Source of the DNA: Pyrobaculum calidifontis JCM 11548 | GTDB taxonomy: Archaea > Thermoproteota > Thermoprotei > Thermoproteales > Thermoproteaceae | Reading direction: 5' to 3' | DNA length: 32,000 nucleotides | Assembly (NCBI RefSeq): GCF_000015805.1 | Contig: NC_009073.1 | Span: 1,505,762 to 1,537,761 of the forward strand | Shown: in pieces, positions 8,486-10,726 of the stretch | Layout of the letters: the number at the start of each line of letters is the position of its first letter | Numbering within the stretch: position 1 is the first letter of the stretch | Position numbers and translations under genes: made by a program | Notes under the pieces: model-generated | What the model saw: only the letters and a program-made list of their open reading frames with translations | The model's database searches: none | Told to the model about the DNA's origin: nothing

Positions 8486-8992
8486 CTACCTGTTTGCCGC
8501 CCTATATAAATGTTGAACTCTAGCGACGCCGCCTATCTCCTCGATGTACTCGGCCACTGCGCTTGGGACAAGCTCCTTCCACCGGGGATCTCCCTGCGCC
8601 ATTAGGCGCCTTACCTCCGTGGCTGAGTAGCCCTCGTGGTGTGGGTGAGCCCTCACCTCTACCCCCCAGTACTCAAGCGCGGCAGCGACGTAGGGGTTGT
8701 TGGAGTAGGCCACTTGGTAGGGGGGACACCAGTGGCGGACATATGCACCCCATAGGCTTGAGGAGCCGCCTGTGTCGGGCACTGTGCAAAAGAGGAGGCG
8801 GCAGTTTGGGCCAAAGTGCCGCCTGAACATCTCAAGCCTCTCGCCGGGGGTAAAGGGGTTTTCAAATGTGAGGGCCTTGTCTGCCGACCCCAGCGCTATT
8901 ACTACCTCGTCGTAGTGCGTGAGGAGCCACTCCACCACTTTTACATGCCCCCAGTGCAACGGCTGGAAACGTCCTACGAAGAGGGCCCGCAT
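8486..8992 (-). CDS. nadM: Nicotinamide-nucleotide adenylyltransferase (archaeal NMNAT)
   Basis: 168 aa. N-terminus [24 protein letters not shown] carries the GRFQPxHxGH nucleotidyltransferase motif, and [24 protein letters not shown] matches archaeal NadM. TATA-like taaaata (plus 9013-9020) lies about 24 nt upstream of the start. Confidence 0.85.
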
Positions 8993-9000
8993 ATTTAAAA
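8993..9000 (+). promoter_or_regulatory. TATA box (atttaaaa) positioned to drive the C/D-box sRNA
   Basis: A/T octamer centred about 24 nt upstream of the C box at 9021. It abuts the nadM ATG on the opposite strand, so it is too close to serve nadM. Confidence 0.45.
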
Positions 9001-9016
9001 CTGAGACTCCGGGTAT

Positions 9017-9074
9017 TTTAGTGATGTTGTAGCTCGCGGCTGAGGTGTGACGAGAGGCATACTGGCTGACTAAA
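9017..9074 (+). ncRNA. C/D-box sRNA (2'-O-methylation guide)
   Basis: Canonical archaeal layout read directly: C box GUGAUGU (9021-9027), 12-nt guide UGUAGCUCGCGG, D' box CUGA (9040-9043), 3-nt spacer, C' box GUGACGA (9047-9053), 12-nt guide GAGGCAUACUGG, D box CUGA (9066-9069). Short UUUA/UAAA flanking complementarity. Own TATA at 8993-9000. The reverse complement has no box pattern. Confidence 0.65.
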
Positions 9075-9867
9075 GCAGAGAAGAAATGTGCATTAGTATC
9101 CTCACCACCTTCGCCGCAGTTATGTCGGAGACGTCGAACGGGGGGCTGTACTCCATGACATCTACGGCCACGGGCTTTAAAGAGAGCATTAAGTCGGCCA
9201 GTAGGAGCTCCAGTTTTCTAAAGGAGAGGCCGCCGGCCTCCGGCGTCCCCACGCCTGGCGCCTCGGAGGGGTCTAAGACGTCTATGTCTAGGCTTAAGTA
9301 CACTCTCCCCGAGGCAGTTGCCACGGCGTCTGCCACCTCGGACCTCGTGAAGTCTGACCCCTCTACCACGTAGAAGCCTGCCTCTTTTGCGTATTTGTAC
9401 TCCTCGTCGTCGTATGCCCTGACCCCTATGTACAAGGCGTAGAAGCCCAACTCCTCGTGCGCCCTTCTTGCAAAAGTGGCGTGGGATAGCTTTTGCCCAG
9501 GCGGCCACTCGTCGCGGAGGTCGAAGTGGGCATCTATGTGGACATACACGTCGGGCCTCAGCGCCCTCAGTGCGGCAAGCGTAGCCGTGTGTTCGCCACC
9601 CAGCATTATAAAGGGCGGCGTAGTCTTCCTAATGAAGGCCTCTATCCGCGACACGTTTTCGCCGGGCGCCCCGTGCAGTAGCTCCACGTCGCCGAGGTCG
9701 CAGAGCGGCTTTGCCACGTTGCCGAGGACAGTCGTGTACTCTAGATACGGCAGAATGCTCCGTATTTTCTGTGGAGCAAAGCGAGTGCCCGGCCTAAAGC
9801 TGACGGTGTCCTCCATCGGCGCGCCGAACAGCTTTACGTCTCCCTCGCGGCAGACGCTCTTAAGCAT
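9070..9867 (-). CDS. speB: Agmatinase (ureohydrolase/arginase family)
   Basis: Ureohydrolase Mn-binding motifs GGEHT, HIDAHFDLR and SLDIDVLDPSEAPGVGTPE. The preferred start is ATG 9867 (MLKSVCREG...), with TATA tataaaaa (plus 9890-9897) upstream. The track start is TTG 9888. Confidence 0.85.
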   Translation of the reverse strand: MLKSVCREGDVKLFGAPMEDTVSFRPGTRFAPQKIRSILPYLEYTTVLGNVAKPLCDLGDVELLHGAPGENVSRIEAFIRKTTPPFIMLGGEHTATLAALRALRPDVYVHIDAHFDLRDEWPPGQKLSHATFARRAHEELGFYALYIGVRAYDDEEYKYAKEAGFYVVEGSDFTRSEVADAVATASGRVYLSLDIDVLDPSEAPGVGTPEAGGLSFRKLELLLADLMLSLKPVAVDVMEYSPPFDVSDITAAKVVRILMHISSLL

Positions 9868-10726
9868 GGCGCCTCTTCCTAGGGACAATTTTTATATCAA
9901 CATGCACTATGAGGGGGTGGAGCTTTGAAATTGCCCTTATGGCCCTGGTCCTCAAGACGTGTAGACGGCCGATGGTCATGTCGGGGCTCACCGCCACGAG
10001 GGAATACACAACTAGGAAGCTCCCAGCCCTCCTAATTTTTACGTCGATGGGGCGGCCCAGCTCGCCGAGTGCATCTCTGATCTTTTCCTCGAGCTCCTCG
10101 TCTCTGTACAATGCGCCCAGGATTCCGTAAGTGGCCTCTCTGGCCAAGCGCAGGAACTCGTAGAGCACGTATCCGAATATCGCCACCACAGCCGCCGTCT
10201 CCGCGATGTATAAGTGGAACAAGTTACTCACAACAACGGCCGCGGCGGAGAAAATGGAGAGGAATGTGTCAACCTTGGCGTGTGTGGCATCTGCCTGGAG
10301 TATGTCCAGCTTCAACACGCGGTAGTTGTGCTTTTCCCAGAGGTACATCAACGCCGTCACTGCGCCGCTGGCCAGCAACAGAAGCGTCATCCATAGGGGC
10401 GTGGGCTCCCCGTCCAGCTTTATAGAGGATGCCAGTAGGTAGGTGTAGAAGCCCACCACGGCTATTACAGAGAGCAACGTCAGCAGGCTCTCTACGCGGT
10501 AGTAGTCCCATGGGAATGGCCTAGAGCGCCTTGACGCAAAGTAGAGGCCGAATCCGCTGACGTACGCGATGGCGCTGTCCAGAAATCCGTGGAGTGCATC
10601 GCTTGTGACTAGGAGGCTTTGGTACACTACGCCGAGGAGGAGCTCCGCCAAGGAGTATGCGAGGGATATCGTCCCCATGATGAAGAGGTAGAGAGAGGCA
10701 AGCCATAGTCGGGTCGACGGCGACAC
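9860..10726 (-). CDS. Cation diffusion facilitator (CDF) family metal efflux transporter
   Basis: 288 aa with six hydrophobic segments. TM2-like SDALHGFLDSA and TM5-like ADATHAKVDTFLS (H/D metal-site pairs typical of CDF proteins). C-terminal cytoplasmic alpha/beta domain. GTG start 10726. Confidence 0.7.
   Translation of the reverse strand: MSPSTRLWLASLYLFIMGTISLAYSLAELLLGVVYQSLLVTSDALHGFLDSAIAYVSGFGLYFASRRSRPFPWDYYRVESLLTLLSVIAVVGFYTYLLASSIKLDGEPTPLWMTLLLLASGAVTALMYLWEKHNYRVLKLDILQADATHAKVDTFLSIFSAAAVVVSNLFHLYIAETAAVVAIFGYVLYEFLRLAREATYGILGALYRDEELEEKIRDALGELGRPIDVKIRRAGSFLVVYSLVAVSPDMTIGRLHVLRTRAIRAISKLHPLIVHVDIKIVPRKRRHA

Follow-up and report, generated by a model that had tools for sequence, protein, structure and literature searches.

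Archaeal C/D box sRNAs carry C/D and C′/D′ boxes, which form a K-turn and a K-loop, respectively, and bind L7Ae, then Nop5 and fibrillarin. In Pyrobaculum, one survey sorts these sRNAs into 110 families and describes approximately 45% of the sRNAs as near-neighbor dual guides (Lui et al., 2018; PMC6009581). The closest described system to the locus treated here is an sRNA of P. calidifontis itself, PCAsR31, listed at genome position 1514782 on the plus strand with a modest small-RNA-seq coverage of 17 (Dennis et al., 2015; PMC4644070, Additional file 1). Its published targets are U1190 and G1218 of 16S rRNA, given in alignment numbering and located 28 nt apart; the same alignment places them at positions 1203 and 1231 of E. 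coli, G1218 being assigned to helix 30 (PMC4644070). As a second target, 16S G316 is also listed (PMC4644070). Thermoproteus tenax sR134, named sR34 in the target table, shares its guide cores and its predicted targets (U1190 and G1218) with sR31, although its D′ box is non-canonical, unlike that of sR31. In addition, T. tenax sR134 directly follows tRNA-Pro and precedes nadM in tandem, whereas P. calidifontis sR31 is divergent from nadM. The fusion of tRNA-Pro and the sRNA in T. tenax has already been reported (PMC7994747). With respect to promoters, a single TATA element of Pyrococcus furiosus has been found to work bidirectionally in vitro, with a distance of about 50 bp between the two start sites (PMC6640164).

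The stretch analyzed here (the window, 32,000 nucleotides) corresponds to positions 1505762–1537761 of the 2,009,313-bp P. calidifontis genome, so that window position 9021 is genome position 1514782. The sRNA gene found there has the identical 49-nt sequence, coordinate, strand and both 16S targets of PCAsR31, without any difference. Thus, the locus is already catalogued with RNA-seq support, and the gene is a known one and not new. We regard it as almost certain that the locus is P. calidifontis sR31, an archaeal C/D box sRNA that carries two guides, has its own TATA box and has predicted methylation targets at U1169 and G1197 of 16S rRNA. As one of 88 catalogued P. calidifontis C/D sRNAs with published target predictions, sR31 is of small importance by itself.

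Box Anatomy of sR31 and Its Neighbors

All of the elements of sR31 are read on the plus strand. Box C (GUGAUGU, 9021–9027), which is conserved in the orthologs, is followed by the 12-nt D′ guide (9028–9039) and box D′ (CUGA, 9040–9043), and after a 3-nt linker by box C′ (GUGACGA, 9047–9053), the 12-nt D guide (9054–9065) and box D (CUGA, 9066–9069). The span from C to D is 49 nt, which is in keeping with the C/D class (guides of about 12 nt, overall length 50–60 nt). A preliminary description of this DNA had proposed just this order of boxes with 12-nt guides as a methylation guide, and every box is in place; the guide assignment agrees with the published expression (coverage of 17) and with the 16S matches of both guides. 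It had also placed 1 nt between box D and the agmatinase stop codon, while in fact box D directly abuts the stop codon.

A genome-wide search for the four boxes returned 12 instances, a single one of them in the window, against none in each of three order-3 Markov genomes; therefore, the pattern is not a product of chance. The box sequences allow the core pairs of a K-turn and a K-loop, namely, tandem G-A pairs, then U-U or C-U, then G-C. No canonical terminal stem in the K-turn register is found at sR31. A possible terminal stem between 9017–9021 and 9070–9074 was rejected, as it is out of the K-turn register and not conserved.

The Rfam search at the gathering threshold returned no match on the sR31 span. 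Below that threshold, only C/D families are found, the best being sR51 (RF01305) with 33.6 bits and an E-value of 8.5e-6. The core of the sR51 D guide is near-identical to that of sR31 and, by inference, is probably aimed at the same 16S uridine. Membership of sR31 in RF01305 was rejected, since the score is below the gathering score of 38 and the D′ guide differs; the likeness is that of a shared or convergent D guide and not of a common family.

On the nadM side, the gene for nicotinamide-nucleotide adenylyltransferase (8486–8992, minus strand; 168 aa) is divergent from sR31 and matches NF002243 from residue 1 with 164.6 bits (cut-off 127). An rpoP-like gene for a zinc ribbon of 52 aa (8325–8483, minus strand; PF03604, E = 2e-4, below the cut-off) begins 2 nt after nadM, and homologs of 82–86% identity follow nadM in a second genus. 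On the other side, speB (9070–9867, minus strand; stop codon 9070–9072) is convergent with sR31 and encodes an agmatinase/arginase family protein of 265 aa counted from ATG at 9867, with 204 bits for PF00491 and 166.9 bits for TIGR01230, just below the cut-off of 174.3. Probably, its true start is this ATG and not the TTG at 9888. In the region 9867–9900 (minus strand), a speB TATA box is seen about 29 nt upstream of the ATG, inside the 3′ end of a CDF transporter gene. The gap between the ATG end of nadM at 8992 and the agmatinase stop codon is 77 nt, as had been described.

Target Sites in 16S rRNA

A duplex scan of the rRNA operon, in which G-U pairs were allowed, was done independently of the published targets. 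In rRNA, the D′ guide matches best over 11 bp (10 Watson-Crick pairs and one G-U; genome 1725383–1725394) and the D guide over 10 bp (nine Watson-Crick pairs and one G-U; genome 1725355–1725364); the two duplexes have energies of –20.8 and –16.0 kcal/mol, respectively. Both sites are in 16S rRNA, 28 nt apart, and both duplexes exceed the 9 bp that the preliminary description had set as a minimum for an rRNA or tRNA target. A Watson-Crick pair is present at the N+5 position for both guides. With the 5′ end of 16S rRNA placed at genome position 1724191, the N+5 target of the D′ guide is G1197 (E. coli 1231, helix 30), and that of the D guide is U1169 (E. coli 1203, helix 34). These positions agree with the published U1190 and G1218. 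Shuffled guides attained such pairing levels one at a time in 5 and 9% of trials, and both together, no more than 100 nt apart, in 3 of 20,000 trials. For the tRNAs, the ARAGORN list has 20 entries and is incomplete and partly spurious; the genome is intron-rich.

The exact guide complements, which had been written out as predicted targets, are absent from rRNA, and the sites appear once G-U pairs are allowed. The prediction that both guides have targets therefore stands, but its exact wording does not: the real sites deviate from the complements at the guide ends and contain one G-U pair each. In the case of the D′ guide, 16S rRNA reads GCUGCAAUGG, not GCUACAAUGG, a difference that the guide accommodates with a G-U pair. 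Indeed, an imperfect match of this guide to a conserved 16S region had been suspected, and the region was correct. The published G316 probably corresponds to an 8-bp match of the D′ guide at genome position 1724495, and was given no weight because 8-bp matches are common by chance.

From these features, the following pathway is proposed. Transcription of sR31 would be driven by the gene's own TATA box (8992–8999), as suggested by the DNA sequence. According to the established mechanism, the C/D and C′/D′ boxes would fold into the K-turn and K-loop, to which L7Ae and then Nop5 and fibrillarin would be recruited. The guides would pair with the two 16S sites 28 nt apart, and fibrillarin is predicted to 2′-O-methylate U1169 and G1197 following the N+5 rule. 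This double pairing may also aid folding of the head domain of the small subunit, a role of dual guides that is a published hypothesis. Profile searches found the fibrillarin, Nop5 and L7Ae families all encoded in the genome with scores over the cut-offs, the L7Ae family profile being one that also takes in other ribosomal proteins. A literature search for site-level 2′-O-methylation at 16S U1169 and G1197 found no direct evidence. A preprint on the P. calidifontis ribosome names 2′-O-methylation as the main modification in its accessible text, and no list of modification sites was found in that part of the text (bioRxiv 10.1101/2024.11.12.623245). Both exact sites lend themselves to inspection in the cryo-EM model already available for this ribosome.

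Conservation of sR31 in Relatives

BLAST searches matched the sR31 region in 16 of 17 relatives in the genus. All 16 of these have the sRNA or a part of it; in one (G013) the sRNA is split and the pattern is unmatched. nadM adjoins the sRNA in all of the 16 Pyrobaculum genomes scored. In a second genus, the guide pattern detected the sRNA in five of nine genomes, one case being the published T. tenax sR134, and there the sRNA is located in tandem upstream of nadM-rpoP. The linkage of sR31, nadM, rpoP and speB is kept in two genera. The search with the sR31 guide pattern in other families gave no match.

Among 21 orthologous loci, pairing is kept by guide cores of 8–9 nt and at both N+5 positions, the linker and flanks being variable, and substitutions mostly exchange Watson-Crick and G-U pairs. 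The 16S target is identical in all 13 recovered 16S copies. Since the target is invariant in these copies, the conservation is a sign of purifying selection and not of covariation.

Promoters of sR31 and nadM

To score TATA boxes, a position weight matrix was made from 51 sRNA promoters of this genome with sR31 left out. In the sRNA genes of this genome, the matrix has its maximum at –27 to –29 relative to box C, and the TATA peak of long ORFs is at –27/–28. The sR31 TATA box (TATTTAAA, 8992–8999, plus strand) scores 11.7 bits, a level reached by 0.26% of the background; it starts at the very nucleotide that opens the nadM start codon on the opposite strand. The TATA octamer that had been noted at 8993–9000, ATTTAAAA, is present there, and the sequence gives good support to the proposal that the sRNA has a promoter of its own, the 11.7-bit element being at the modal position of –29 from box C.

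The promoter of nadM is less clear. The sole element at the expected distance is a candidate TATA box (CTAAAATA, 9021–9014, minus strand) 29 nt upstream of the ATG, with a weak score of 5.8 bits (3.2% of background); nadM is probably leaderless. Hence the suggestion that the 5′ flank of the sRNA doubles as the nadM TATA box is plausible though unproven, the element being correctly placed but a weak match. A crossed layout, in which each TATA box overlies the start region of the other gene, is plausible from the base sequence. Or nadM may be transcribed by read-through from speB, which has the same direction, instead of from its own TATA box.

In most Pyrobaculum relatives, the arrangement resembles that of P. 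furiosus: the gap from the C box to nadM is 45–47 nt in 12 of 16 genomes, and one T/A element, 24–28 nt away from the C box as well as from the start of nadM, serves both directions. The gap is 26–28 nt in two genomes and 105–120 nt in two others. P. calidifontis differs from the bidirectional promoters of P. furiosus in that its gap is 17 nt shorter than in most relatives; consequently, nadM cannot be driven by the sRNA TATA box and must depend on a second, crossed element or on read-through. With three promoter geometries in one genus, the sR31-nadM pair could be useful for comparing bidirectional with crossed promoters in archaea.

The layout is not confined to sR31. Crossed TATA boxes were found at at least five other sRNA genes of the genome (1072580, 1073821, 1828530, 1893950, and 1929264), with a divergent ORF start 25–32 nt upstream and good TATA scores on both strands, and four others have a gap of 45–46 nt with one shared TATA box; as ORF starts were called mechanically, these counts are approximate. 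The rarity implied in the preliminary description is thus unsupported, given both the recurrence of the crossed layout and the catalogue entry of the gene itself, and the promoter interleaving at sR31 is plausible and of an ordinary kind for this genome. Genome-wide, with the same mechanically called starts, the gaps between C boxes and divergent ORF starts cluster at about 25–33 nt (crossed TATAs) and about 45–46 nt (shared TATA). Neither the promoter layout of sR31 nor two promoter spacings in Pyrobaculum were found to be described in the papers examined.

Alternative Interpretations

A reading of the boxes as chance motifs in an intergenic spacer might lean on the lack of any Rfam family at its gathering score, but it is refuted by the Markov controls, the paired 16S target, the conservation in two genera and the published reads, and its likelihood is practically nil. 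sR31 might pair at both sites and methylate only one of them, or mainly fold the 16S head: each duplex contains a G-U pair, most orthologs have a mismatch at the base adjoining box D′, and non-methylating guides are known in Pyrobaculum. Nevertheless, the cases described by Lui et al. (2018; PMC6009581) carry a mismatch at N+5, whereas both sR31 guides have a Watson-Crick pair there in 21 of 21 loci, so that a single active guide or a pure chaperone is unlikely. An antisense role, on the speB 3′ end, on a speB-nadM read-through transcript or on mRNAs paired with the D guide, might be suggested by the abutting of box D to the speB stop codon and by perfect 12-nt D-guide matches outside rRNA at genome positions 161856 (plus strand) and 1183912 (minus strand). 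These two complements are probably due to chance. In the relatives, sR31 and speB lie anywhere between 0 and about 1.3 kb apart, the 16S sites account for the guide conservation, and conserved mRNA targets of orphan guides were not found in the survey (Lui et al., 2018; PMC6009581); such a role is very improbable.

The crossed promoters could also be taken as a regulatory switch, in which initiation at sR31 and at nadM-rpoP is mutually exclusive and the supply of guides is linked with NAD synthesis and RNA polymerase subunit P. The overlap of each TATA box with the start region of the other gene and the linkage of sR31, nadM, rpoP and speB in two genera would fit this idea, but the geometry is unconserved across the 16 Pyrobaculum genomes, the orientation is tandem in the second genus, and unrelated sRNA genes also have crossed TATAs; we consider a switch at this locus quite unlikely. 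A broader proposal, namely, that divergent sRNA/mRNA pairs come in two spacings (about 46 nt shared and about 28 nt crossed), that sR31-nadM-rpoP has switched between them, and that the crossed form makes the transcripts mutually exclusive, is doubtful as well, and any functional coupling of crossed promoters is speculation. With sR31 read as a dual methylation guide, its promoter overlap with nadM would represent genome compaction and not a regulatory device.

Gene Order around the Orthologs

In the second genus, the sRNA is found just after tRNA-Pro or a tRNA-Pro-like sequence in three of the five loci: in L040 (1560–1652, minus strand) and in L037 and L038, which are T. tenax-like, the sR31 ortholog follows tRNA-Pro. 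The tRNA-Pro of L037 and L038 looks intron-interrupted and was missed by ARAGORN. The other two loci, L036 and L039, are without tRNA-Pro upstream of the sRNA and have a TATA-like element instead. In all of L036–L040, the nadM-rpoP block has changed its side and orientation relative to the sRNA. In Pyrobaculum, two genomes (G008 and G006; loci L005, L007, and L020) harbor an insertion of about 1.3 kb between the sRNA and speB.
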